Notes: generated from the letters alone by a model not told the origin. DNA of 48,506 nt from Patescibacteria group bacterium (GCA_043815345.1 JBDRJA010000131.1:1-48506); one strand, 5' to 3'; shown: positions 2,851 to 48,506, counted from the first letter of the stretch. Numbers and translations are program-made.

Positions 2851-4107
2851 TTAACTAACTTGATGTTTTAATCTCCATTCCCCGGCCTTTTTTTCCCATA
2901 AATGCGGAGAACGGAATTGATCAGCTAACTCCATAAAATAATCTCTATCCATTATCGGGTGCTTAAACATTTTTGAAGCTATAGGAAATTCATTTTTATC
3001 TATGCTTAAATATTTATATACTTCTTCGGAAAATCTTTCAGGATATTCGTGCTCAAACCTTTTTACTAAAGCCACTCCTTCTTCCCTGGTTATATCACCG
3101 GAACGAATTTCTTGGGAAGCGTCATAAGTAGCCCGGCCAATACCGAATTTTATTAAAGTTGTAAAATAATGAAAATCATCAATTTTATCATCAATACTGT
3201 TGTACTTGCTGTAAGTCCCGGAAGTTCTTTCGGGCGACGCCTGAAAATCACCATGTTCTTGAGCGTAATAATAGCAGGCTTGAGGGTGCCACTTTAAATA
3301 ATAGCCCAAATAATGAACTTCAATCTTTTTCTTTTTTAGTTCTTCTGGATTGGCTGGCATATAAGGTTGTAAATCATATTCTCCAACGCTATATTTTTCT
3401 TTTAAATCTTTCAAGGAAATTCCGCCCAAAAATATTTTTGATTTGTCTTTAGATGTAAAATAAGACCAATCGCGTAGAGCTTTTTCCATATCGGCCACTG
3501 GATTACCATACTCGGCTTCATGTTCTCCATAAAATACCAAAGGTATATTGTATAAAGCCGCCATTTTAGGCGCTAAAGATTTCTGGCCGATTATAAAGGG
3601 TTGGAAAGGATGGAAAAGATTCTGCACCGCTAATCTAGTTAAGAGACGGTGTATCTTGCCATTTGGGGTAAATAGTATATTATCTAATCCCGAATGAATC
3701 CAGGCCTGAAAATTTTGCCAGCCCCAATCAGTATAAATATGAGGCGCCCAGGTAACTGTTAAGGGGTGCATTTTATATTTATATTTTAAAATATGCGTTG
3801 TATAAAAACTATCCTTACCGCCAGACCCGGGGATAAGGCAATCGTAAGATCCGTCATCTTTACGATAACGATCGCAAAGCGCTTTTAATTCTTCTTCCCG
3901 CTCATGCCAATCAATATTTTTCTTTTTTTCAGCCACCCGGCAAGCGTCACATACTCCTTCTTCATTAAAGTTAATAGTCTGCTTCTTAGAATCTTTAGTA
4001 TGTTCATACTCAACCGCCGAATTAGGTCTTTGGTTTGAAATAACACACTTTTTACAGAATTTTACTTCGGACGGCAAGCCGTATTTTGTTTTAATTTTAT
4101 TACTCAT
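2851..4107 (-). CDS. N-acetyl sugar amidotransferase (PP-loop ATP pyrophosphatase; WbpG/WbuX/PseA family)
   Basis: 418 aa. PP-loop motif PGSGGKDS and N-terminal Cys pairs (CKKC, CDAC). Sits immediately downstream of hisH/hisF paralogues with a 4-nt ATGA overlap. Confidence 0.85.
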   Translation of the reverse strand: MSNKIKTKYGLPSEVKFCKKCVISNQRPNSAVEYEHTKDSKKQTINFNEEGVCDACRVAEKKKNIDWHEREEELKALCDRYRKDDGSYDCLIPGSGGKDSFYTTHILKYKYKMHPLTVTWAPHIYTDWGWQNFQAWIHSGLDNILFTPNGKIHRLLTRLAVQNLFHPFQPFIIGQKSLAPKMAALYNIPLVFYGEHEAEYGNPVADMEKALRDWSYFTSKDKSKIFLGGISLKDLKEKYSVGEYDLQPYMPANPEELKKKKIEVHYLGYYLKWHPQACYYYAQEHGDFQASPERTSGTYSKYNSIDDKIDDFHYFTTLIKFGIGRATYDASQEIRSGDITREEGVALVKRFEHEYPERFSEEVYKYLSIDKNEFPIASKMFKHPIMDRDYFMELADQFRSPHLWEKKAGEWRLKHQVS

Positions 4108-4748
4108 AATAAACTTATAAAATCCCTTATTATTTTAAGGCCCACTGGCCCGCTTTTTTCCGGATGAAACTGGCATCCGTAAACATTGCCCTTGCGCACA
4201 GAACTGCAGAATTTATGATCTCCGTAAATCGTAATAGATAATACATTCTTCTTCGCCACTGGTTTTAAAATATATGAATGCACAAAATATACTTGATCTT
4301 TTTCTTTTATAGATTTTAATATGGTATTAGCCCAGGCATTTTTGTCAGGTGGAGAAATTCTATTCCAGCCAATATGCGGTATTTTTTCTTCTTTAACTAA
4401 ATTAGGAAATTTAACAACCTCGCCTTTAATTATATCTAACCCGCTAACAACACCGAACTCATGACCTTTGCTTAATAGAAGTTGAGCGCCTAGGCATATG
4501 CCTAGAATAGGTTTATTCGCACTGGCGATTTCTTTTACAATCTTAACTAATCCCCTTACTTCAAGACCTCTCATGCCAGCTTTGAAAGACCCCACGCCTG
4601 GTAAAATTACTCCGTCTGCTTTCTTTATCACTTCTTCATCTTCGGAAATAATAATATCAGCGTTAAGATGCTTAAAAGCTCTAGATAAACTATATAAATT
4701 ACCTACCCCGTAATCAATAATTACAATTCTGGATTTTTTCATAGTCAT
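4104..4748 (-). CDS. hisH: Imidazole glycerol phosphate synthase HisH-like glutamine amidotransferase (glycan-locus paralogue, WbuY-like)
   Basis: IVIIDYGVGNLYSL, catalytic Cys in GICLGAQLL, and His/Glu in QFHPEKS. 4-nt overlaps with both neighbours. Confidence 0.85.
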   Translation of the reverse strand: MTMKKSRIVIIDYGVGNLYSLSRAFKHLNADIIISEDEEVIKKADGVILPGVGSFKAGMRGLEVRGLVKIVKEIASANKPILGICLGAQLLLSKGHEFGVVSGLDIIKGEVVKFPNLVKEEKIPHIGWNRISPPDKNAWANTILKSIKEKDQVYFVHSYILKPVAKKNVLSITIYGDHKFCSSVRKGNVYGCQFHPEKSGPVGLKIIRDFISLL

Positions 4749-5506: not shown

Positions 5507-6949
5507 TTATTTCTTAGAATTATCTCTAGTATAATGCCTAGCTCCTCTAAACTTAGTTATCTTGCCGCTATATAAATCAGCTAATTGTTGAATTAACCAT
5601 CTAGCCTCGTCCATGTCTCCTTTTGTGTGTTTATAATGATCAAGTATTAAATCAGTGTTTATCTCTAAAAGCAACTCATAGGCTTTTTTGTCCGGCATAT
5701 CCATAATATTTATTAACATCAAATCTGAATTTTTAAATTTTTTAAAAAAATCCTCTGGCCCCTTTAACTTGCCTTGATCAATTAATTTATAATACAGATC
5801 CGAACCCGGATACGGAGTTACTGGCCTAATAGTACGGCATTGATAATAGGTATTATACTCTTTTATAAATTTGACGTTTCGCCTTAAGGTGCGTTCGTCA
5901 TCCCCTAAATTATTCCAGATAAAATTTAAACCCATACCAACGCCGCCGATATCTTTAATTAATTTAAGAACTTCTATATTCTTTTTAACGGTTGTATTTT
6001 TATTCATTAATTGTAAAACTTTGTCGTCGCTTGACTCAAAACCAATACAAATAAATTGGCAACCGCACCTTTTTAAAATCTCCACAATTTCTTTATCCAT
6101 TATATCAACCCGGGCGTCACAAAGAAATTTAATTTTTAAATTATTATCTTTTAACGCTTGTTCAAATTCTAGAAGCCGTTCTTTGCTAAAAACAAATAAT
6201 TCATCCTCAAAAAGATAGCAGTTAATTCCGTATTTTTCATATAATATTTTTAATTCTTCAATTACATTCTTTATGCTCCTTGCTCTAATTCCTTTTTCCA
6301 TCCGATAACAAAAATTGCACCTATTGATACAGCCTCGGCTAGTAATTATTACCAGACTCTTTTCATGCGGCTCCTGATTATACATCCGGCTACAAGTTGT
6401 ATATTTATCCATGGGGAATATTTCCCAAAGGGGCATTGGAATTTCGTCTAAATTGGTAACTAATTTATTTTGACCGGTTAATTTTAATTCGTTATTATCT
6501 AAATACGCTATTCCTTTTACTTTAGATAAATCGCCGTTTTTGACTTTGCATTCAAGCAGGTCAACAATGGTATTTTCGGCTTCTCCTATGGCTATTATAT
6601 CGGCTTTAGTTTTTTTAAGCATATATTCGGGAATGGGCGAAGGGCCATGGCCGCCAAGGACAAACCAAGCAGTTTTCTTGTTTTCATTAATAACTTTACA
6701 TAAATCTATAATAGTCTCTTTAAATCTCGCTGCTAAAAAACCCAGGCAGATCAAATCATAATTATTTTTTTGTAAAAAATCTGCTAACTGTTGGTTAGTA
6801 TAATGGAACACATCCATGGAATAAGCTTCTACATGAGCGCCATTCTTATTAAGCATTGCCGCCAAATATGCAGGGCCTAAAGGAAAATGATTATCTTCCT
6901 GATAAAGATCATGAATTATAAATAATACTTTATTATTTTTAGTAAACAT
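5507..6949 (-). CDS. B12-binding-domain radical SAM protein (class B rSAM), paralogue 1
   Basis: N-terminal Rossmann-like B12-binding region (VLFIIHD...IAIGEAENT) and CxxxCxxC in SRGCINRCNFCY. Confidence 0.85.
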   Translation of the reverse strand: MFTKNNKVLFIIHDLYQEDNHFPLGPAYLAAMLNKNGAHVEAYSMDVFHYTNQQLADFLQKNNYDLICLGFLAARFKETIIDLCKVINENKKTAWFVLGGHGPSPIPEYMLKKTKADIIAIGEAENTIVDLLECKVKNGDLSKVKGIAYLDNNELKLTGQNKLVTNLDEIPMPLWEIFPMDKYTTCSRMYNQEPHEKSLVIITSRGCINRCNFCYRMEKGIRARSIKNVIEELKILYEKYGINCYLFEDELFVFSKERLLEFEQALKDNNLKIKFLCDARVDIMDKEIVEILKRCGCQFICIGFESSDDKVLQLMNKNTTVKKNIEVLKLIKDIGGVGMGLNFIWNNLGDDERTLRRNVKFIKEYNTYYQCRTIRPVTPYPGSDLYYKLIDQGKLKGPEDFFKKFKNSDLMLINIMDMPDKKAYELLLEINTDLILDHYKHTKGDMDEARWLIQQLADLYSGKITKFRGARHYTRDNSKK

Positions 6950-6957
6950 ACTAAATC

Positions 6958-8751
6958 TTATTTTCTTAAATTAAACATCTTATAATAATAAGATTCTTTA
7001 TCTTTCAACATCTTGTCTGGCGATCCTTCCTCTACAATTTTTCCGTCTTTTAATATCATTAACTTATCAGAATTAATAACCGTTGACAATCTGTGGGCAA
7101 TAACTAAGACAGTCACTTTATTTTTTAAATTTTCTATAACCCGCTGTATCTTAATTTCTGACTCATTATCCAAGGCGCTGGTGGCTTCGTCTAATATTAA
7201 TATTTTTGGCTGTCTGGCTAAAACCCTGGCTATTACTATGCGCTGACGCTGGCCAACCGAAAGCGACATTCCTCTTTCACCGATAACAGAAGAAAAATTA
7301 TCTGGTAAGCTTTGAATAAAATTATATATATTAGCCATCTTAGCCGCTTCTTCCATTTCTTTATTAGTAATTGATTTATCATAAAATTTAATATTATTGG
7401 CAACAGTATCATTCATTAAAAATATATCCTGCGATACATAGCCAATATTTTTCCTCCATTTTTCCATATTAATGTCGGTAATATTTCGGCTATCCAATAA
7501 AATTTCACCTATAACCGGGTCCAGCAAACGTAAAAATAAATCAACCATGGTGGTTTTCCCAGCTCCTGAAGAACCAATTAATCCGACCATCTCTCCTTTT
7601 TTAATCTTAAAATTTATACCTGATAATACTTGCCTGCCTGATGAATATGAAAAACCGACATTTTTAAATTCTAATTCATTATTAAATTTAAAATTCTCTG
7701 ACCCGCCCTTGGCTTCTTTACTTTCAAGGGCTTGTTCCTGATATTTTAAAACGCTTTTTAAATAAGGGGCGACTTCGTTTGTGGTATGCAGGTTTGCCTG
7801 CAGTTGCTGAAAATATATAAACATTCTCTGAACTAAATATATAATTACCGCCAAAGAAGCGAAGTTAAAGCCGGGCGTTTTATAAGTAAAAGCAAAAATT
7901 AAGCAAATGAAAATTAGGCTTATGGGTTGCATCATTGAACCGCTAATATTCGCCAATAAAAATATTTTAATTTTGAATTTTCTTAACTTATTAAAATACT
8001 CTTTGCCTATATTTTCTACTTTTTCGCCAATCGCCATTGCCTTAACTGTTTTCATGCCAATAATATTTTCATTTACAAAATGCGCAACTTGCTTGTTTAC
8101 AACTTCGGCTTCGGTAGATACTAACCGACTTCTATATATTAAAGGCTTAAAAACAAGAAACAAAATTCCGCCGGTAATAAAAACAATGATAGTAATATAC
8201 AAAGAAATATTAATTGCCACGATTGTATATATTGTTAAAGATGCCAAAATCGTAAGCACCGTGCCAATTTGTTCTAAAAGTATTGATCCAGTTTTAATAT
8301 TTGTCATTAATATAGTTTCTAAATATCCGACTTTTTGCTTAGATAAATACGGCCAGGCAGATTGCAGGGTGGTATGGAATATATTATTTCTTGTTTTTTC
8401 TTCATATTCAGCCGTTATTTTAATTTTTATATAACTAATTATAACTAAAGTAACTGCTCTTATAATAAACATTAATGAGATAAAAATAAGTAAATATTTG
8501 ACGCTAAAATTAATATTTAGAAATGAAAATGCGTTACCGATAAATTGCGATATTGGGTCATCGGCTACTCCACCCTGGCCACCCATAGCAATAGAAAATA
8601 AAGGAATCAACGCATTCACGCCAATTCCTTCTAAAATACCGCCAATAAAGCCTAGCCCGGTTAAAATTATAATTTGCAGCTTGTATTCGCCAAAAGCTTG
8701 CTGCGCTAGTCGTAGTATTATTACTATTCGGCTGTCTTTTAATAGTATCAT
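6958..8751 (-). CDS. ABC transporter, fused permease/ATPase half-transporter (MsbA/PglK-like exporter)
   Basis: Six N-terminal TM helices. Walker A GSSGAGKTT, signature LSVGQRQR, Walker B ILILDEATSALD. Confidence 0.9.
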   Translation of the reverse strand: MILLKDSRIVIILRLAQQAFGEYKLQIIILTGLGFIGGILEGIGVNALIPLFSIAMGGQGGVADDPISQFIGNAFSFLNINFSVKYLLIFISLMFIIRAVTLVIISYIKIKITAEYEEKTRNNIFHTTLQSAWPYLSKQKVGYLETILMTNIKTGSILLEQIGTVLTILASLTIYTIVAINISLYITIIVFITGGILFLVFKPLIYRSRLVSTEAEVVNKQVAHFVNENIIGMKTVKAMAIGEKVENIGKEYFNKLRKFKIKIFLLANISGSMMQPISLIFICLIFAFTYKTPGFNFASLAVIIYLVQRMFIYFQQLQANLHTTNEVAPYLKSVLKYQEQALESKEAKGGSENFKFNNELEFKNVGFSYSSGRQVLSGINFKIKKGEMVGLIGSSGAGKTTMVDLFLRLLDPVIGEILLDSRNITDINMEKWRKNIGYVSQDIFLMNDTVANNIKFYDKSITNKEMEEAAKMANIYNFIQSLPDNFSSVIGERGMSLSVGQRQRIVIARVLARQPKILILDEATSALDNESEIKIQRVIENLKNKVTVLVIAHRLSTVINSDKLMILKDGKIVEEGSPDKMLKDKESYYYKMFNLRK

Positions 8752-35182: not shown

Positions 35183-36394
35183 TTAATTTTGAATAGTTTC
35201 TTTATTTTCTACGATAAACTTAGCTCTTTCAAATAATTCATCATAAGTAATTATTTTTACATTTCTAGAATCTCTGCGGAATAATTCAAAACTTTTAGCC
35301 TTTATTTGACTTTCTTTTAATTCGCCAGCATATTGATTAGAATGACCAATTATTAAAATTGTTTTAGGATCAACTGTTTTCTGTCTAATAATCTCCCCCT
35401 TATCATTAAAGTTATTATTTGCGTTTGATTCAGCCTGTACTTGCCAATCAGCTTTTTGTTCCAGTATTTGAGAAAAAGAGTTAATTAAATCATTAGATAA
35501 GCACCAAGAGTTAGCTCGATTTTGGTTGTTCTTAAACAATGGGGTATTGGGTTTTTTTAATTCAACAAGTGTCGTAAACTTATTGCACCCAAGCAAAAAA
35601 TCGCCAATAACTGCATCTTTGCCTTTTAGATCAGTGTTGGAAATATGAACTTCTTTTTGCAAAATTCCTAAAAATTTATAATCTAACCCATAACCAAATA
35701 TCCAATCATTTTTATTAAAGAAATGTTGCCATGTTATTTCTATTCTAGGATCGGTTATTTGATTTTCTCTTTTATATATATTTATGTAATTAGGATCATT
35801 TAATAATTTATCAAAAATTTCTAATTCCTTCTTTCTATAACCGATATTTACAATATCAGAGGAAGTGATTAAGCCACTATTTAAAAGTTCTTCAATAATC
35901 TTTGGTCCATCTTTCTGAATCAAAAAAGTTTTAATTTTACTTTTTGTTTCATTATCTATTTCTGAAAGATCATCATTAGATAGAGCTATTTTCCTTTCAT
36001 TTATTCCTTCTAAATTTAGGTCGGAAAGAAACCTTAAAAATGCAATTAACTTCTTAAACGTAAAATAAGAAAAAGTAATTTGTTCAGTTTCAACTTCTTG
36101 CCAACCATCATTTTTGTAATGTTTAAATTTTTTAAAAGATATAGAATTAATATCTTTTTGTTTTTTTATAAATGTTAAAGTAATTTTAATACGATTTCTC
36201 TTGGGATAAGGAAAATTAATATCAATTTCCTTCGGTAAACCCGTCTCTTCATCTTCAGTTACAATATTCAAAAACTTTCCCTCTTGATTTTTGAATTCAT
36301 GAGTATAAAGTGTATCGAGATTGGAATTAAAAGCAATATCACTCTCGGATGGTTTTATCTCATTCTCTGATAATAATTTTTCTTTGTTTTCCAT
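35183..36394 (-). CDS. Shedu-like defence nuclease (SduA, DUF4263 PD-(D/E)XK domain) with an uncharacterised ~200-aa N-terminal domain
   Basis: The C-terminal half shows the DUF4263 pattern: YRKKELEIFDKLL, WQHFFNKNDWIFGYG, GDFLL...LVELKKP (D...ExK), ILIIGHS, and the terminal VKIITYDELFERAKF. Confidence 0.7.
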   Translation of the reverse strand: MENKEKLLSENEIKPSESDIAFNSNLDTLYTHEFKNQEGKFLNIVTEDEETGLPKEIDINFPYPKRNRIKITLTFIKKQKDINSISFKKFKHYKNDGWQEVETEQITFSYFTFKKLIAFLRFLSDLNLEGINERKIALSNDDLSEIDNETKSKIKTFLIQKDGPKIIEELLNSGLITSSDIVNIGYRKKELEIFDKLLNDPNYINIYKRENQITDPRIEITWQHFFNKNDWIFGYGLDYKFLGILQKEVHISNTDLKGKDAVIGDFLLGCNKFTTLVELKKPNTPLFKNNQNRANSWCLSNDLINSFSQILEQKADWQVQAESNANNNFNDKGEIIRQKTVDPKTILIIGHSNQYAGELKESQIKAKSFELFRRDSRNVKIITYDELFERAKFIVENKETIQN

Positions 36395-39272: not shown

Positions 39273-39674
39273 TTATTCTTTTAAATTATTTGGATTAAAA
39301 ATTCTAAATATCTTAACCCCTTTTGAAGTGAAATGGGCTAAAATTGCGAGCTTCATGCCGGTCACTGCCAAATAACTCTTAATCTGCTCAATATTACTTT
39401 TTGAAAAATGATCACCTCTTTTCAACTCAAGCACAATTTTATTATCTACTATAAAATCCATATAATTTCTGCCAACAACTTCCTTGCGAAAAATTATTTT
39501 GTACGGTGCTTGCCTTACGTATTTTATTTGATAGTCTATAAAACATTTTTCTATGGCTTTTTCATAATGTTTTTCTAAATATCCGTAGCCAAGAGAATTA
39601 TATACTTCGTATAGTATTCCTACAATTCTATAACTTAACTCTTTATAAATAACTTTCCCTCCCCCTTGCTTCAT
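39273..39674 (-). CDS. GxxExxY protein (PD-(D/E)XK nuclease-like small protein family)
   Basis: 133 aa. Eponymous motif GYLEKHY (G-x-x-E-x-x-Y), then DFIVDNKIVLELK (D...ExK). Confidence 0.75.
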   Translation of the reverse strand: MKQGGGKVIYKELSYRIVGILYEVYNSLGYGYLEKHYEKAIEKCFIDYQIKYVRQAPYKIIFRKEVVGRNYMDFIVDNKIVLELKRGDHFSKSNIEQIKSYLAVTGMKLAILAHFTSKGVKIFRIFNPNNLKE

Positions 39675-42033: not shown

Positions 42034-42477
42034 TTATTGACAATCTGGATTAATGCTTCCCTGGAAACAATATTCTATTTCCACAGTTCTCTTTACATTA
42101 ATAAACTGCCCAGTTGAAGTAAAGCAAACATCAAGATCGCAAGCCTCTTCATTCTTAACCTTATAGCCGGAACCATTGCTTAAACTTTCAAAAAAAATAG
42201 TATTGCAATCAACACAAGTTGGAGTCGTAAAATCTACGCAGAAACCAGCGCATTCGCTAATATCAAACATATTTTTTCTCACCTCCCATAATATCCTCTC
42301 CGCGCCCGCTTCTGCGGCAAAATATGCTTTTGTAGAAACTGCCTGCGTACCGCTCATCTTAATTCCTGAAAAAACTAAACTAGCCGCCCCTAAGGCAACT
42401 ACTAAAATGCTTGTTAATATTAATAAGGTCATCAACAACGCGGTGCCATTAATATTTTTTTTATAAGTCTTAAACAT
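42034..42477 (-). CDS. PilX-like minor pilin/pseudopilin-like protein, Cys-rich C-terminal domain
   Basis: N-terminus NINGTALLMTLLILTSILVVALGAA resembles the PilX_N hydrophobic segment (no Glu5). There are 9 Cys in the ~90-aa C-terminal part. Confidence 0.5.
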   Translation of the reverse strand: MFKTYKKNINGTALLMTLLILTSILVVALGAASLVFSGIKMSGTQAVSTKAYFAAEAGAERILWEVRKNMFDISECAGFCVDFTTPTCVDCNTIFFESLSNGSGYKVKNEEACDLDVCFTSTGQFINVKRTVEIEYCFQGSINPDCQ

Positions 42478-42536
42478 AAATTTAAAATTTCTGGTCCCTG
42501 AAACGTTTTTTGTACAACTAACAAAATAAGTTATTA

Positions 42537-42578
42537 GTAAAACTAGTAAAAAATAATCCTTTGCTTTACTAGTTTTAC
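42537..42578. repeat. Perfect 14-bp inverted repeat between two pilin-like genes
   Basis: GTAAAACTAGTAAA (42537-42550) is the reverse complement of TTTACTAGTTTTAC (42565-42578), with a 14-nt loop. Confidence 0.7.
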
Positions 42579-42659
42579 GTATTTTACTAATTTTACAAAG
42601 TGATAGAAAAGATCATCAAATAATAAAATATTATGCGGATTACAAATATCTCTATTCAC

Positions 42660-43286
42660 TTATTCGTAATACCTTGATGAAATTGTAGTTTGTATTTTCA
42701 TTTCCTGTTTATGCATCTCTTTTCTCATTGCTCTAGCTTCCATCATAATAGTAACGCTTGGCTGAATTTCATGAAACTCGTTCGCCTCATCATCTTCAAT
42801 ATAAAATAATAATTTTTCTAAATTTAAATCATCTGGCGTAATAAAGGCTGAATTAATATCCCTATCAACTTTAAGCCTTGATATGCCTGCATCATCTTCT
42901 AAATAATATCTAACGCAATCTCCATTTTTGTTTTCAAAATAAAGTTCATCGCCAAAATTCGATGCCTCCATAGATTCACTAGTATTAAATACTTTAAAAG
43001 CGGTTGTTCCAACAGGGGAAAGGTCGCAGCTACTGCCTCCGTGTGCGCCTCTTGCCATTCTTATTTCCTTGGCCATAGTTTCAAAAGCGTACCTCATATT
43101 TTCCTGTATATTTTGGGCGGCGATTGAATTGCGCTGGCCCTCAACCACCATTGAAAAAATTTGGGTAGCGGAAAGCATCGTAACTGAAAACAAAGCCACC
43201 GCTACTAACATCTCTAATAAAGTCGCGCCTTTATTATTTTTTCTAATTTCTTTAAAAATATAATTCATATATGTTTTATGATCCAA
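42660..43286 (-). CDS. Prepilin-type N-terminal cleavage/methylation domain protein (PilW/GspJ-like minor pilin)
   Basis: KNNKG|ATLLEMLVAVALFSV is a class III signal with Glu at +5. The start may be the internal ATG at 43268. Confidence 0.7.
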   Translation of the reverse strand: MDHKTYMNYIFKEIRKNNKGATLLEMLVAVALFSVTMLSATQIFSMVVEGQRNSIAAQNIQENMRYAFETMAKEIRMARGAHGGSSCDLSPVGTTAFKVFNTSESMEASNFGDELYFENKNGDCVRYYLEDDAGISRLKVDRDINSAFITPDDLNLEKLLFYIEDDEANEFHEIQPSVTIMMEARAMRKEMHKQEMKIQTTISSRYYE

Positions 43287-43301
43287 GCTTTATGCTTCAT
43301 A

Positions 43302-43832
43302 TCACCGCCAATCATATAAAACAGTATCGGCAATATATTGATGAAACTGCCCTCTTTCTCCCCATTGTACAATGGAAGATACTGCTATGAAAGAATTGGT
43401 ATAATCATTAGTAGTTTCAATGATGCGGCTAAAATTAGTCTTTTCCCCTAAACCATGAACATAAAAATCATTATTTATTATTAATTCTGCGGCCGCATCG
43501 CTAATAATAACACCATCAGTTATCCCTATGAAATCAATGGTAAAAGTTTTAAAGTCATCTGGTTCAGCAATGCCAGTAAACACCCAGGGATTGCTCGGGT
43601 CAAGCCAACTCTTATCCCTCACATTCCTGGTTAACTCCAGGCCTTCTTGAGCTAATTGCGAGGCAATTAAATTATTTTTATTAATATATTGCACTTGCAC
43701 ATTTTGCACAATTAAAGATAGTACGCCAATTAAACCCATGGTAATAATAAAAATAGCTATTATAACCTCTAAAATACTAAAGCCGTAAATATTATCTAAT
43801 TTTAGATTTTTTTTTCTGCAAAATTTTAACAT
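43302..43832 (-). CDS. Prepilin-type N-terminal cleavage/methylation domain protein (PilV/GspI-like minor pilin)
   Basis: NIYG|FSILEVIIAIFIITMGLIG is a class III signal with Glu5. Confidence 0.7.
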   Translation of the reverse strand: MLKFCRKKNLKLDNIYGFSILEVIIAIFIITMGLIGVLSLIVQNVQVQYINKNNLIASQLAQEGLELTRNVRDKSWLDPSNPWVFTGIAEPDDFKTFTIDFIGITDGVIISDAAAELIINNDFYVHGLGEKTNFSRIIETTNDYTNSFIAVSSIVQWGERGQFHQYIADTVLYDWR

Positions 43833-43943
43833 TAAATTTAAGCTTTATTATTTAATAACTAATGCCACAACAGCCTTATCCGGCAACTATCTTTTCTTCA
43901 TAAAACCGTTTAAGAAACCACAGCTAGTATGGTATTTTGAGCT

Positions 43944-44486
43944 TTATTCACCATAATAAACTGTGCCCACTACATCAATTAAGCCAAAAAAATTTACCGT
44001 AACAATTTTACTTGAAATATTATCGGCTAACTCTATTTCGACGGTTCCACTATTATCATTGTTTATATAAGTTATCGGATCAGGAGGTAAAAATACTATG
44101 TCAACTAAAGTACCTATATTAATAGAATTTATTGTAATGCCCGCAGGCAAATCTACAACTTTACCGCCTAACTCCTCACTAGCTTCGCCTTCGTCATATT
44201 GATTATTAGCGTCAAGGTCAGCAAATACATAATAGTAGCTTTCCCCTTCACTAAAATGCGCTCCCCAGCCACCGTCTGGAATACTACCGTCATATTCAAC
44301 TGAGCCCAAGCTATTACTTTGAGCTAACCTTATGTCGCTGGCTACTTTTTGAGCGGTTATATTTAATTGCGAACGCTGGCTAGTAGCGCGATAGTTAACT
44401 AAAAATATTGCAGATAATAAACCGATAATCGATATGCTAACTAGTAATTCAATGAGGGTAAACCCCGCCGCTTTTTTACCCCGCAA
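43944..44486 (-). CDS. Type IV pilin / GspG-like (pseudo)pilin
   Basis: MRGKKAAG|FTLIELLVSISIIGLLSAI is the canonical prepilin leader if translation starts at TTG 44486, which has AAGGA 6 nt upstream. The track ORF to 44738 would give an implausible ~91-aa leader running through a GC-rich hairpin element. Confidence 0.75.
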   Translation of the reverse strand: MRGKKAAGFTLIELLVSISIIGLLSAIFLVNYRATSQRSQLNITAQKVASDIRLAQSNSLGSVEYDGSIPDGGWGAHFSEGESYYYVFADLDANNQYDEGEASEELGGKVVDLPAGITINSINIGTLVDIVFLPPDPITYINNDNSGTVEIELADNISSKIVTVNFFGLIDVVGTVYYGE

Positions 44487-44493
44487 AAAAAAT

Positions 44494-44560
44494 CCTTCTC
44501 GCCACTCTCCTTGCTCACCCTGTCCCCTTCGCGAAGGACGGGGCGAGGAATAGGGCGAAA
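44494..44560. repeat. GC-rich palindromic element in the pilin leader region
   Basis: 12-nt perfect palindrome CCTTCGCGAAGG (44526-44537), extended by CC/GG with an AC bulge. Flanked by CTCTCCTTG and CTCACCC motifs shared with the gatA patch. Confidence 0.55.
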
Positions 44561-44748
44561 AGATGCCTGCCTTTAAATACGAGAAGGTAAGATTAGCTTT
44601 CACCGCCTGTAGTCTAATTCCATTGGCAAGCAACGCCTTTCTATGGGGTTTACACATCCTGGTTTTAAATCTTCCTTCGTATTTATAAAAATTAGAGATA
44701 AATCCTTTTATATTCTTAATTATTCTAGATAATCCCATATGCTAAAGA

Positions 44749-44773
44749 AAGACGAGAGCCATCCCCTCGTCTT
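44749..44773 (-). terminator. Intrinsic terminator downstream of the 1145-aa protein gene
   Basis: Minus strand reads AAGACGAG-gggatggct-CTCGTCTT followed by TCTTT. An 8-bp GC-containing stem about 90 nt after the stop at 44862. Confidence 0.55.
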
Positions 44774-44861
44774 GTTTAAAATAACAAATTAGGCTTAATT
44801 TATTCTTGCAATTATCATCCTGCAATGTATTGAAAATAATATTTTAAAAATATTAAGAATA

Positions 44862-47800
44862 CTATTCCGCTTTAATTTCTTTCCATCGCGGCAATCTTAA
44901 CCGCGCCTCAAGCATGTACGTATTCTCGCAATAATAGCTATCTTCATCAGTAACTCTCAGGATAGCCTCTTTATTTTCTTCTGCCTTGAATTTAACAATC
45001 ATAGTTGAAGAGGCAAAAGTACCGTCTATAATTTCAATATTTTCAGGCGGATTATAGCTCCATGCCCAAATACAATTACTATCATTGTTTTCATCACTGC
45101 AAGCTACAGGCGCGGTCGGATCTTCAGCAAAGTATGTATTAGTAGTAGCTATAAATTTAACTTCTTCTTCTAAACTAATGCTCTTAGGCACCCAGGTAAA
45201 CTCTACATCAGGGAACTCATGGAGATAGGTGGTGAATGTCTTGCTATTACCATCATTATCTAAATCATCCGGATCATAAAACTGCACCCATTCTGATGAC
45301 ATATTGTATTTGTCCCAAACCTTAACCCACCAATAATATCCTTGATTATATTCAAGAGCTACATTCCTATAAATATTATTAGAAGGATAAAAACTAGTTG
45401 CCAAGCCATCAAGCTTGGGCGTTTTTAAAGGCAGTAAATTTCCAGAACCATCATTAATAGCATCTAGGTCTTCAATTAAATGATCTGCGCTATCAAAAAA
45501 TATTTGATAAGCAGTCTGAGGTTGATACGGGTCTTCTGGCTCATCAGGGTCATAAAAAGTCCAAAGTAATTGCGGATTTAGAGCGCCAAGAATTCCACAA
45601 GCGCAAGCATAATCGCAATTACCAGGATTAGCCATAGCATCGCCAGTAACTTCAGGCGCCGTATTTACATTTCCTACTACTTTATAATCATGCCCGGCGC
45701 ACCCCCCAACCTCATCATCAGCGCAATTAAAACTCATCCAGCCTACTCCAATATCAGCTATGTTATCACTATCAACATCAGCGCCATTCCAGGCCCAGCC
45801 GCTAAAATCACTAGTAGTAATATCAATTTTAACTCCTTTTCCATTCCATATCCCGACGCTGTCATCGCTCATTTTTAACCAGCCCTCATCTCCTAAAGTT
45901 AATATTTTCGCCCAGCCAGTCACGCTTCTCTTATTATAATCAGTCTCTCCATATTCATACTTTACGATTTGTTGAGGATCGCTGGGATAGGGTGGGTCAG
46001 GAGCAAAATCTATCCAACCTACATTAGAACTCCAAGCATAGCCGGAAAAAAAGCCGGTCGTAATATCAATATCAACATTATAATTATTATCAACACAGCT
46101 TCCGCCTACCGCCGAGCAATCGCTAGTATCGTCGCATATTATGCTTGAGTCATATTCGCAAACCAGGCACCAATAAACACACTCGCCCCCATTACTGGTA
46201 CAATCAGATCCTGCGCCGGCGCAGCTATAATTTATTGCCCTTTTCGTACTAGTATCCCGGCAGAGTTTATATTCATCTTTACCGCAGTCTTCTTGGCTAA
46301 AGCTAAACCAGCCAAAATTCTCGCTCCAAGCCCAGTTGGTTACATTACCGCTGCTAGCCATCTCTCCTAAGCCGCTATCATAACTATCTTCTACTTCGTC
46401 TGGTAAAAAAGCATAATTATATATTTCAACTTCGTCAATAAAGCCACTAAAAACACCCTGCGTTCCTTTGGCGTTATTAGGAGTACCGACCGTAAGATCA
46501 GTATAATCATCAGTGAAACTGGCGCTAGATTCATAAGCTGAATTATTAAGCACGCCGTTAATATAAACGGAAATTTTTCCTGTATCCTGATCAAAGGTGC
46601 ACATCACATAGGTAAATTTATCAGTAAATATTTTTCCGCTAATTACATTGGCTTGACTACTTAGTTCTTTTATACCGCATTGTATTTTTTCATCCGGCAT
46701 GATAAGCATATAAATACCCCGGCTTGAAGTTTGCGCTCCTGATGATATTATATAGCCATTATCAGTATGGTCATTAGGGTTTACCCAAGTTCCCCAGGAT
46801 ATGCTTTTGTCAGTAGGGTCTGATATTATGTTACCGCTAAAACTGCCAAAATCAACATAACTATTTTCTCCATCAAACTCTAAACAATCATCACTTACAC
46901 AGTCAATTTCATATTTCCAAGTTGGTCCATTAATTAGAGCTCCATCATTATTGTTCACCTCGTCGTCAGTTAATATTCCCGCTCCTTCGTTAAACTTCCA
47001 TTTCCCAACCAAGCGCGGCTTACTATCAAAATCAGCCCTAATTTCCTCATCGTCTAGGACATAATTATAAATTTTGACGTCGTCAACAAGACCATGGAAC
47101 GGATACGTGAAATCCGTCCGCGAACCAATGGTAACAGGACTATCCAAGGTAAAAATGCTAGCATTTGAACCTACATAAACTCCATTACTATAAAGTTTCC
47201 ATTCTGTTGCAGTTTGGACGAAAGTGGCGAAATGCCACTTGTTTACTAATAATCCAGTAATTTTTAATCCTTCTGGATTATTACCATTACTATTATGATA
47301 ACGCAAGCTAGCCGTACCATCCCCGTCATTAACAACATCAAACCCCTGCCAGTCGCTGCCATCGCCAAATATTACATTATCATTATTGCCTTGCCAAACA
47401 CCGCTGCCTGGCCTAAACCAAAATGACACCGTTCTGGTTGTGAGACCGCTAAAGCCGGGTATAGCCACATAGCCATCTACCCCGTCAAAACTCGCTACTT
47501 GCCCCATTATTTCGTCTTCAATAATATCTACTCCTCCGCTCGGTATTCCAGTATTGTTGTTAAAGCTTGAGTCAGTATAATCGCCGTCAAATTTCCAATA
47601 ACCCGAAGTAGCCTCAAATTCTTGACTATCCACTCCATAACTCTCTATCGGTGTACCTTCAGAAGGACAACCGATAATTTCTGCTTCTATGGGGTCAATA
47701 ACGCCATTTCCGTTAGTATCGCAATTCCTTGAACTAAAGCTTATCCAGCCAATTTCTTCATTCCAGGCCCAGCCGCGAAAATAATTATCTTGCTCTAAAT

Positions 47801-48299
47801 ATACTCCATAATCTGAGACGCTGCACTCCCCAACTCCATAACATCTCATTTTAATCCAACCCTCGGGATTAGCGCCGGTACAAGCGCTCGGATAATCATC
47901 CGCCATAGAACAAATACGGGCCCAGCCAGAAACTTCTCTAGACGCTAAATCTATCTTAGCTGAATAAATTGGGCTATAGCCCGCTGGAGGGGTATCAGAT
48001 GCGTTGAACCAAATATAACCAACCGCGTCTGACCAGGCATAACCTGTAAAATTACCATCTGGCTCAATATTAACTCCGTAATCATTAGCCGCGCAAGAAT
48101 CTGTATTAGTGCAATTAAAACTTATCCAACCAATATTATCATTCCATGCCCAGCCCTGGACATTATCTCCAGCTCCGGCTCGAGTGATTTTAGTAGTAAG
48201 GCTAAGATCATAAAAAAACAAAACAGCACTAAAAATTATAGCGGCCATAGTTATGCCTGCTAATATTATCCATGTTTTCTTTCTAAAAAAATCTTTCAT
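44862..48299 (-). CDS. Large secreted/anchored surface protein: two Trp-rich GWAWxxxxGWIxF repeat modules flanking two LamG/ConA-like lectin domains, C-terminal FN3/PKD-like region. Candidate pilus-associated adhesin.
   Basis: 1145 aa with an N-terminal signal anchor (WIILAGITMAAIIFSAVLFF). LamG_3-type strings FDGVDGYVAIP...VDDVKIYNY and FDGENSYVDFG...IDEVEIYNY. Eight W-rich repeats. Confidence 0.8.
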   Translation of the reverse strand: MKDFFRKKTWIILAGITMAAIIFSAVLFFYDLSLTTKITRAGAGDNVQGWAWNDNIGWISFNCTNTDSCAANDYGVNIEPDGNFTGYAWSDAVGYIWFNASDTPPAGYSPIYSAKIDLASREVSGWARICSMADDYPSACTGANPEGWIKMRCYGVGECSVSDYGVYLEQDNYFRGWAWNEEIGWISFSSRNCDTNGNGVIDPIEAEIIGCPSEGTPIESYGVDSQEFEATSGYWKFDGDYTDSSFNNNTGIPSGGVDIIEDEIMGQVASFDGVDGYVAIPGFSGLTTRTVSFWFRPGSGVWQGNNDNVIFGDGSDWQGFDVVNDGDGTASLRYHNSNGNNPEGLKITGLLVNKWHFATFVQTATEWKLYSNGVYVGSNASIFTLDSPVTIGSRTDFTYPFHGLVDDVKIYNYVLDDEEIRADFDSKPRLVGKWKFNEGAGILTDDEVNNNDGALINGPTWKYEIDCVSDDCLEFDGENSYVDFGSFSGNIISDPTDKSISWGTWVNPNDHTDNGYIISSGAQTSSRGIYMLIMPDEKIQCGIKELSSQANVISGKIFTDKFTYVMCTFDQDTGKISVYINGVLNNSAYESSASFTDDYTDLTVGTPNNAKGTQGVFSGFIDEVEIYNYAFLPDEVEDSYDSGLGEMASSGNVTNWAWSENFGWFSFSQEDCGKDEYKLCRDTSTKRAINYSCAGAGSDCTSNGGECVYWCLVCEYDSSIICDDTSDCSAVGGSCVDNNYNVDIDITTGFFSGYAWSSNVGWIDFAPDPPYPSDPQQIVKYEYGETDYNKRSVTGWAKILTLGDEGWLKMSDDSVGIWNGKGVKIDITTSDFSGWAWNGADVDSDNIADIGVGWMSFNCADDEVGGCAGHDYKVVGNVNTAPEVTGDAMANPGNCDYACACGILGALNPQLLWTFYDPDEPEDPYQPQTAYQIFFDSADHLIEDLDAINDGSGNLLPLKTPKLDGLATSFYPSNNIYRNVALEYNQGYYWWVKVWDKYNMSSEWVQFYDPDDLDNDGNSKTFTTYLHEFPDVEFTWVPKSISLEEEVKFIATTNTYFAEDPTAPVACSDENNDSNCIWAWSYNPPENIEIIDGTFASSTMIVKFKAEENKEAILRVTDEDSYYCENTYMLEARLRLPRWKEIKAE

Positions 48300-48418
48300 A
48301 TTTTACCCCAAGTACATTTATAGTGATCTTGGCGACAAGCCTTATGAACTAATATAAATTATTAGAAAATAAGGTTTAATAGACAAAATTGGTTGGTGAA
48401 AACTTTGTTTTCGTTGTA

Positions 48419-48473
48419 ATATTAGTCATACATTTATAACAAATTTAAATCTATTTGAATTTATGACTAATAT
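48419..48473. repeat. 12-bp inverted repeat upstream of the large surface protein gene
   Basis: ATATTAGTCATA (48419-48430) is the reverse complement of TATGACTAATAT (48462-48473), with a 31-nt spacer. Lies 120-175 nt upstream of the ATG at 48299. Confidence 0.5.
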
Positions 48474-48506
48474 CTCAAAAAAAACATTGTGTAAATTGTA
48501 GCGGTA

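Follow-up and report, generated by a model that had tools for sequence, protein, structure and literature searches.

A lectin-domain surface protein encoded with a GspHIJK-like minor pilin set in Patescibacteria: a candidate type IV pilus tip module

In the GspHIJK and FimU-PilVWX systems, minor pilins nucleate the pilus and reach its tip, and in the HIJK complex it is the K subunit that, for want of Glu5, takes the top position (PMC9934059). That tip adhesins may be co-encoded with minor pilins, and that pili may carry lectin modules, is already known. In Streptococcus sanguinis, the modular minor pilin PilC bears Ig-like and ConA-like lectin modules, belongs to a tip complex and binds glycans (PMC9934059). 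The concept of lectin-like pilus proteins has also been published for the candidate phyla radiation (CPR), in Nanosynbacter lyticus TM7x, whose PilX1 and PilX2 are large proteins with non-canonical signal peptides, no predicted PilD cleavage and lectin-like accessory domains, with PilX2 needed if the host is to be bound efficiently (PMC11623550). Here we analyse a contig from a Patescibacteria group bacterium (GCA_043815345.1, JBDRJA010000131.1) that encodes, at one end, a 1145-aa surface protein with two LamG domains, followed by four small pilin-like proteins. The contig was analysed as a whole and is called the window below; it comprises 48,506 bp at ~33% GC, with all genes except one on the minus strand.

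The five open reading frames (ORFs) of this gene set lie where a first-pass annotation had placed them, all on the minus strand. On balance, we favour reading them as the form that the priming/tip module of the type IV pilus takes in Patescibacteria, in which a lineage-specific non-pilin protein is the partner of four minor pilins. The large gene is called the GWAW gene here, after a repeat motif in its product, and the pilin genes are given the letters H, I, J and K. To place the set among relatives, one genome per species was scanned, which yielded 80 Patescibacteria loci (1.17 Mb); gene maps and hidden Markov models built from the four pilin positions were then used on these 80 loci. L-numbers denote relatives' loci and P-numbers homologous proteins.

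The conserved synteny is established by these comparisons. There are 22 H-I-J clusters in the 80 loci, and 15 of them begin no more than 800 nt downstream of a GWAW gene on the same strand, where chance would be expected to place ~0.6 clusters beside such a gene. The GWAW gene adjoins H-I-J(-K) in 15 of the 80 loci and in 13 of the 20 closest, and is in this sense co-conserved with pilin genes, so that the link stands up to the refutation test set beforehand on this point. In 7 of the 80 loci an H-I-J cluster lies elsewhere in the flank. A PilD-like gene is found directly upstream of the GWAW gene in at least 10 loci, and LigA follows the pilin set in 9 of the 15 adjacent ones. Independent look-ups of L001 and L003-L005 show the same arrangement, and at the loci of three homologues we see 3-4 small N_methyl proteins encoded directly downstream, with Peptidase_A24 (PilD) directly upstream in two. 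The consensus block runs in the order major pilins, pilD, GWAW protein, an optional 23S_rRNA_IVP gene, H, I, J, K, ligA and gatC, and its order, strand and close spacing are kept in loci that carry the labels Parcubacteria, Falkowbacteria and Portnoybacteria. The pilins upstream of pilD in relatives are separate GFTLIELLVVIAIIG-type proteins of 150-165 aa, and are likely the major pilins.

The window itself stops 207 nt upstream of the 1145-aa gene. These terminal 207 nt are AT-rich and non-coding, and a search within them for a prepilin peptidase fragment found none. They do hold a 12-bp perfect inverted repeat (ATATTAGTCATA ... TATGACTAATAT, with a spacer of ~32 nt) at ~48415-48476. The first-pass annotation had reported no PilB/C/D/M-Q genes in the window, and a Pfam scan of all 44 window ORFs of at least 120 aa likewise found none.

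Judged by sequence, the four small genes appear to follow the H-I-J-K order of gspHIJK and fimU-pilVWX. Pilins 1-3 carry class III prepilin signals (MRGKKAAG↓FTLIELL, ...NIYG↓FSILEV and ...NNKG↓ATLLEM, respectively), and a prepilin regular expression run over the six frames of the 48.5-kb window hits nothing but these three motifs (G↓FTLIELL, G↓FSILEV and G↓ATLLEM). Against PF07963, which has a cut-off of 21.2 bits, pilins 1 and 3 score 30.8 and 28.0 bits, and pilin 2 falls slightly under at 20.4; pilin 1 also scores above the cut-off of TIGR02532. This first pilin had been called GspG/PilA-like, an assignment that has to be replaced: all 17 orthologues have GspH as their best-matching family, and the protein is a GspH/FimU-like minor pilin. 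Its 264-aa ORF call is too long at the 5' end, orthologue leaders being no longer than ~30 residues (alignment A4), and the likeliest start is a TTG at 44486, which has an AAGGA ribosome-binding site ahead of it and gives a 180-aa protein that begins MRGKKAAG↓FTLIELL.

Pilin 2, taken at first pass as PilV-like, matches PilV (TIGR02523) at E=1e-8, and its orthologues match PilV in 17 of 17 cases and GspI in 8 of 17. For pilin 3, taken as PilW/GspJ-like, PpdB (PRK10557) and GspJ are matched by the window copy and each in 16 of 16 orthologues; its real start is probably the ATG at 43268. The fourth protein, described as PilX-like and Cys-rich, has 147 aa with 8 Cys residues and a G↓TALLM N-terminus from which Glu5 is absent. 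This absence is shared by 13 fourth-gene orthologues, which read G↓(T/S/V)(A/I)LL(M/L)T at the same place. PilX_N is matched at E=0.24 by the window copy and in 5 of the 13 orthologues, at E-values as low as 6e-7, while the N-terminal matches to GspK, tapirin and Verru_Chthon cassette protein A are weak, the last two falling far under cut-offs. A PDB profile search with three of the four pilin sets (A4, A5 and A7) found no homologues of the globular domains.

The large protein is of a different kind. Its N-terminus, MKDFFRKKTWIILAGITMAA..., has no conserved Gly-1/Glu+5 (the Gly is absent from orthologues) and gives no N_methyl match, so that it lacks a class III prepilin signal. That PilD might cut within the hydrophobic helix (LAG↓ITMAA) was considered and rejected, as the site is not kept in orthologues. 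The helix is followed by a linker, modelled by AlphaFold2 (AF2) with low confidence, that ends TRA↓GAGDNV, and the Ala of this stretch (A41) is invariant across the family described below (alignment A1). Because a spacer of ~11 residues precedes this Ala, a Sec-type cleaved signal and a signal anchor appear equally possible.

Beyond the N-terminus, the domain architecture is established by several lines of evidence. The GWAW motif, G[WY]AW[SN]xxxG[WY]IxF, occurs in three copies in module 1; module 2 is 34% identical to module 1 (E=1e-13) and is broken by a Cys-rich insert. PF13385 (Laminin_G_3) matches in two stretches at 129.1 bits against a cut-off of 27.6, in agreement with the LamG domains reported at first pass. 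LamG domain 2 was modelled better than LamG domain 1 by AF2, and in Foldseek it aligned over ~150-160 columns with structures that contain lectin-type β-sandwich domains, namely sialidases/trans-sialidases, pentraxins and botulinum toxin binding domains. These LamG/ConA-like domains are candidate carbohydrate binders, although the fold by itself does not establish lectin activity. A PDB profile search matched only rhamnosidase N-terminal Ig and ColH PKD domains. An NCBIfam match to TafC, a haloarchaeal Tat-fimbria subunit, was set aside as irrelevant, since it reaches 29.8 bits against a cut-off of 410 and covers only aa 352-425, inside LamG domain 1. Homology to PilY1 was also rejected, as the large protein has no match to the PilY1 β-propeller family PF05567 at E<=1 and PilY1 is not among the 50 Foldseek matches listed for either model; the first-pass annotation was right to describe the protein as non-homologous to PilY1.

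The 1145-aa protein is a member of a large Patescibacteria family, which we define here by a hydrophobic helix at the N-terminus, one or several GWAW modules (GWAWxxxxGWISF β-hairpins), an Ig-like domain of the Rha78A_N kind, a PKD-like domain, and an LPxW(K/R/E)E-x-x-P tail. All of these are seen in the window's protein by alignment A1, motif scan, tail survey, AF2 and PDB profile. Neither Pfam nor NCBIfam has a model for the GWAW module. An exhaustive phmmer search with aa 42-230 matched 4,667 representative clusters (at 50% identity) at E<=1e-3, with 1,814 of these at E<=1e-10, and the named matches are almost exclusively Patescibacteria. The AF2 model of P0005, a 633-aa orthologue (predicted local distance difference test, pLDDT, 81), comprises a transmembrane-like helix, a disordered linker, a β-rich GWAW region, two Ig-like domains and an unstructured tail; as to the GWAW fold, Foldseek of this model against PDB and BFVD gave only tandem Ig/FN3/PKD matches. 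In most family members the GWAW module starts a few residues past the conserved Ala (...KA↓GxxDNVSGWAW), and many carry a textbook Sec signal peptide, as seen in the N-termini of 120 homologues.

Orthologues at the pilin-linked position span 417-1145 aa but mostly have 417-526 aa, a single GWAW module and no LamG domain. The window copy is the largest found, its extras being the second GWAW module, the two LamG/ConA-like domains and the Cys-rich insert, and the binding inserts of same-position orthologues vary, some being LamG and some other domains. As typical orthologues are short and lack LamG, the conserved pilus-linked part is, on this sequence comparison, the GWAW-Ig-PKD-tail scaffold rather than the lectin domains, with LamG a lineage-specific insert. 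The giant size noted at first pass is particular to this lineage. The tail motif, LPxW[KRE]E-x-x-P, which reads LPRWKEIKAE in the window's protein, is found at the extreme C-terminus in L006-L085, in pilin-adjacent proteins and distant paralogues alike, and is thus a family-wide feature. Predictions give it no structure (coil in the P0005 AF2 model) and no transmembrane segment comes after it, so that it is unlike known sortase or exosortase signals; a role in docking or sorting may be considered for this peptide.

Duplication of the GWAW module recurs in the family. In L004, the GWAW gene at 3212-4161 contains a recent 486-nt tandem copy that is 80-89% identical, and in the same locus a J-like minor pilin (6125-7477) has grown to 450 aa via three tandem 204-nt repeats. 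Taken together, these repeats point to quick modular evolution of the gene set as a whole.

Versions of the same modules fused to pilins are established in other genomes. The proteins P0090 and P0093 (~700 aa) have class III signal-like N-termini, G↓QSLIELALG and G↓QLLTEILVAM. Their LamG domain is homologous to both LamG domains of the window's protein (E ~1e-15), and their GWAW repeats are 49% identical to its own (E=9e-17). Their genes lie between T2SSE/PilB-T2SSF/PilC and PilM, beside further N_methyl proteins. As the class III-like signal, LamG and GWAW occur there in one protein, these module types are in those genomes part of a pilin, and we regard these fusions as the strongest indirect argument that the window's protein may work on a pilus.

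Between the large gene and pilin 1, the first-pass annotation had noted a terminator-like hairpin and a leader of ~260 nt. Both are present, the leader being ~257 nt to the likely TTG start. The hairpin is predicted by RNAfold, though it is absent from the listing of a simple terminator scan. In its 3' half the leader turns GC-rich, at 49% where the window has 33%, and forms a stem-loop at 44557-44500, followed by AAGGA, a U8 run and the TTG. The leader has no Rfam family match, is not repeated in the window and has no counterpart in relatives, in which the matching gap is mostly 36-200 nt or is occupied by a 23S_rRNA_IVP gene. The hairpin and the long structured leader, which only this genome has, suggest that transcription of the large gene and of the pilins may here be separate or conditional, and the leader may act as an attenuator. 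As the hairpin and a gap of 375 nt part the large gene from the pilins, the single operon proposed at first pass is not assured here.

We also considered that the leader might be a decayed 23S_rRNA_IVP gene, such as is present at this place in L001, L017 and L021, but tblastn found nothing. Genes of this 23S_rRNA_IVP/bAvd type, which encode four-helix bundles, are recurrently inserted in the GWAW/minor-pilin block of relatives. About 6 kb downstream in L004/L005 there is a bAvd and reverse transcriptase pair, likely a diversity-generating retroelement. Targeting of the L004 locus by such an element was rejected, as no template/variable repeat pair is present in the part of L004 examined.

Features of the gene set and of related loci. 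Positions are those of the window unless a locus is named.
Feature	Position	Strand	Basis
1145-aa GWAW-repeat/LamG surface protein	44862-48299	minus	ORF, PF13385 in two stretches, homologues, synteny, AF2
N-terminal hydrophobic helix, aa 1-32	48204-48299	minus	AF2 helix 2-32; N-termini of 120 homologues
GWAW module 1, aa 42-230, motifs at aa 49, 86, 176	47610-48176	minus	motif scan
LamG/ConA-like lectin domain 1 (candidate), aa ~233-426	47022-47603	minus	PF13385 second stretch; BLASTP to P0090 LamG
LamG/ConA-like lectin domain 2 (candidate), aa 476-636	46392-46874	minus	PF13385 best stretch; Foldseek
GWAW module 2, aa 648-870, motifs at aa 655, 753, 834; Cys-rich insert aa ~672-737	45690-46358	minus	motif scan, Cys positions
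Two C-terminal Ig-like domains, aa ~907-1133: Rha78A N-terminal-like, then PKD-like	44901-45581	minus	PF25788 (weak), PDB profile, Foldseek
C-terminal tail ...RLRLPRWKEIKAE, family motif LPxW[KRE]E-x-x-P	44865-44900	minus	alignment A1, tails of 80 loci
Terminator-like hairpin (44771-44751) and U tract (44750-44744)	44744-44771	minus	RNAfold; directly 3' of large gene
Leader, ~257 nt	44487-44743	minus	fold z-score -2.9
Minor pilin 1, GspH/FimU-like	ORF 43944-44738; likely coding sequence 43944-44486, 180 aa, TTG start	minus	PF07963, TIGR02532, orthologues
Minor pilin 2, PilV/GspI-like, G↓FSILEV	43302-43832	minus	TIGR02523 E=1e-8; PilV in 17/17 orthologues
Minor pilin 3, GspJ/PilW/PpdB-like, G↓ATLLEM	42660-43286	minus	PF07963 28 bits; PRK10557 and GspJ, 16/16 orthologues
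Fourth subunit, PilX/GspK-like, G↓TALLMTLLIL	42034-42477	minus	PilX_N, weak GspK/tapirin, alignment A5
23S_rRNA_IVP/bAvd-type genes in relatives	L001 9035-9400; L011 6580-6930; L017 5698-6081; L021 11418-11780; L004/L005 ~10.9-12 kb

Working as a priming/tip module, the gene set could operate as follows. The GWAW protein would be exported via its Sec-type N-terminal signal or anchor, and the H-I-J-K proteins would nucleate a pilus and finish at its tip. The GWAW-Ig-PKD-tail scaffold would join the H-I-J-K complex, so that the variable binding domains plugged into it would be displayed at the tip or close to it; in this genome these would be the two ConA-like/LamG lectin domains. Enlargement by lectin domains suggests that glycans on the host-cell surface may be the ligands. 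What we infer for the large protein is that it associates physically with the pilus, is located at the tip and has lectin activity. The first-pass proposal of a tip adhesin analogous to PilY1 is upheld in so far as the gene is co-conserved with the pilin genes and its product non-homologous to PilY1; the role itself, as tip adhesin or as an accessory of the pilus, is well motivated but inferred. A more specific version of the proposal, which we hold tentatively and think possible rather than probable, is that GWAW-Ig-PKD-tail proteins form a Patescibacteria-specific class of tip adaptors unrelated to PilY1. Their tail peptide or Ig-PKD stalk would dock on H-I-J-K, and interchangeable paralogues (LamG, PKD, FN3, RCC1), some of them encoded elsewhere, would swap host-recognition heads. 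If so, the window holds an enlarged version of the adaptor, armed with two lectin domains.

Several observations weigh against a pilus tip role. Within the sequence examined, 45 of the 80 loci have no H-I-J cluster, and neither pilus machinery genes nor a major pilin were found on the contig of the window. The large protein has neither a pilin fold nor a class III signal, and is set apart from pilin 1 by the terminator-like hairpin and the 375-nt gap. The GWAW module, being very common (4,667 clusters), may be a general surface or envelope module. The pilin equivalog scores are all under curated cut-offs, with similarity confined to the N-terminal 50-75 residues, and the LamG region is poorly modelled, with pLDDT <50 for much of aa 230-500.

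The large protein might instead serve the pilus machinery from the membrane or envelope, outside the fibre, whether by spanning the wall or S-layer, by guiding the pilus or as a wall-binding anchor by PilD, with LamG binding the cell's own envelope glycans. The helix at residues 2-32 and the spacer of ~11 residues make a long N-terminus for a signal-peptidase-I site, the gene adjoins that of the prepilin peptidase, thousands of proteins encoded away from pilin operons contain the GWAW module, and a big glycan-synthesis cluster lies on the same contig. The aromatic β-hairpins of the GWAW repeats also, to our eye, recall cell-wall-binding repeats, but no choline- or wall-binding repeat family is matched in the large protein at E<=1. 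We nevertheless think this role somewhat unlikely: a machinery part would be expected to be of constant size, whereas the orthologues differ in length (417 to 1145 aa) and have exchanged binding domains, and the same modules are grafted on true prepilin N-termini elsewhere.

A different explanation is that the large protein works as a surface adhesin in its own right, sharing with the minor pilins only its place on the chromosome and perhaps its regulation, and has no physical link to a pilus. In its favour, a hairpin with U tract and a structured leader separate the genes here, many GWAW paralogues are encoded far from pilin genes, and LamG-rich surface proteins are common in CPR (PMC12911398). 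Mere co-location is unlikely, however, to account for an order, strand and tight spacing that recur in loci labelled Parcubacteria, Falkowbacteria and Portnoybacteria, for the presence of pilD on the other flank of the GWAW gene, or for the pilin-fused versions of the same modules. It is also conceivable that H-I-J-K primes a short competence or secretion pseudopilus, of which the large protein is a ComZ-like tip receptor for DNA or another ligand, or a secreted substrate. All four small proteins match ComG and type II secretion system pseudopilin models too, CPR type IV pili have been discussed with regard to DNA uptake (PMC11623550), and ligA is syntenic in 9 of 15 loci; yet ligA, gatC and gatA are housekeeping neighbours, the lectin, Ig and PKD domains suggest glycan or protein ligands rather than DNA, and ComEA, ComEC and other DNA-binding domains were not found in the window, so we judge this improbable. 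We therefore retain the priming/tip module as our preferred reading of the locus.

Other parts of the contig, and of the relatives' deposits, merit a brief description. Positions 12-34979 of the window, on the minus strand, form one long glycan/glycosylation gene cluster, which encodes a CMP-sugar-type cytidylyltransferase, a HisH/HisF-like pair, a split asparagine synthase, an epimerase and an ABC exporter. It further encodes six B12-binding radical SAM proteins and one radical SAM/SPASM protein, approximately eight SAM methyltransferases, GT2/GT4 glycosyltransferases and two PMT_2-type glycosyltransferases. The cluster may make or modify a glycan of the cell surface, or may add sugars to surface proteins, for instance pilins. 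A Shedu-type defence protein (SduA_C, E=7e-28) is encoded at 35183-36394 and a small PD-(D/E)XK nuclease-family protein at 39273-39674, both amid housekeeping genes (tRNA, Maf, GatA, LigA). Among the relatives, L021, L013, L017, L070 and L077 have Patescibacteria-type gene content but are deposited as Methanoregula or 'uncultured Gammaproteobacteria' metagenome-assembled genomes; these labels are probably binning or labelling errors.

Most Patescibacteria, the ultrasmall bacteria of the CPR, have not been brought into culture, and a life in attachment to other microbes is assumed for them; we know of no account of how the large Parcubacteria-type lineages recognise their hosts. Type IV pili that bear lectin-like tip proteins have been shown to be important only in cultured Saccharibacteria (PMC11623550). 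In this setting, the block of pilD, GWAW protein and H-I-J-K offers a concrete and widespread candidate for a host-recognition head on the pilus, and the GWAW family, with ~4,700 clusters at 50% identity, stands outside Pfam and NCBIfam models. What seems new is the widely conserved non-pilin family together with its fixed position between pilD and H-I-J-K. No description of the GWAW family or its architecture in Parcubacteria was found in the literature covered, to which subscription journals do not belong, and this is no proof of novelty. The scaffold-plus-insert logic could serve to predict ligand diversity from metagenomes, and the value of the work lies in a well-supported hypothesis rather than in a new principle.

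Compared with described systems, the locus resembles several in part. Large ligand-binding proteins in or beside type IV pilin gene sets are also seen in ComZ of Thermus thermophilus, the tapirins of Caldicellulosiruptor and Verru_Chthon cassette protein A. None of these has similarity to the window's large protein, and the resemblance to tapirins and Verru_Chthon cassette protein A is a short N-terminal similarity of the fourth protein only, far under cut-offs. TM7x PilX1 and PilX2 are, like the GWAW protein, large CPR pilus-locus proteins with lectin-like domains and non-canonical signals, a likeness drawn by description only; they differ in being described as lollipop pilins with a jelly-roll or RCC1 propeller, whereas the window has separate PilX-like and GWAW genes. 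S. sanguinis PilC shares the combination of Ig-like and ConA-like lectin modules, on a monoderm-type pilus. PilC carries these modules on a pilin moiety that has a class III signal; such a moiety is missing from the window's protein but present in its relatives P0090 and P0093.

The FimU-PilVWX set with PilY1, as in Pseudomonas and Myxococcus, would be the nearest functional analogue, from which the window's large protein departs in having no similarity to PilY1 in sequence or fold, no vWA domain and no β-propeller, the propeller being the feature on which membership would fail. The gene order also differs, as the large gene lies upstream of the set, beside pilD, and not after pilX, and, at 147 aa, the K-like subunit is the smallest of the set and not the largest as in GspHIJK/FimU-PilVWX. 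Even so, the locus has in common with FimU-PilVWX and GspHIJK four minor (pseudo)pilins in what appears, by family matches under curated cut-offs, to be H-I-J-K order, of which the last lacks Glu5, and with FimU-PilVWX and PilY1 a large co-encoded non-pilin protein whose N-terminus is not of class III, which makes it a candidate for priming and tip display.

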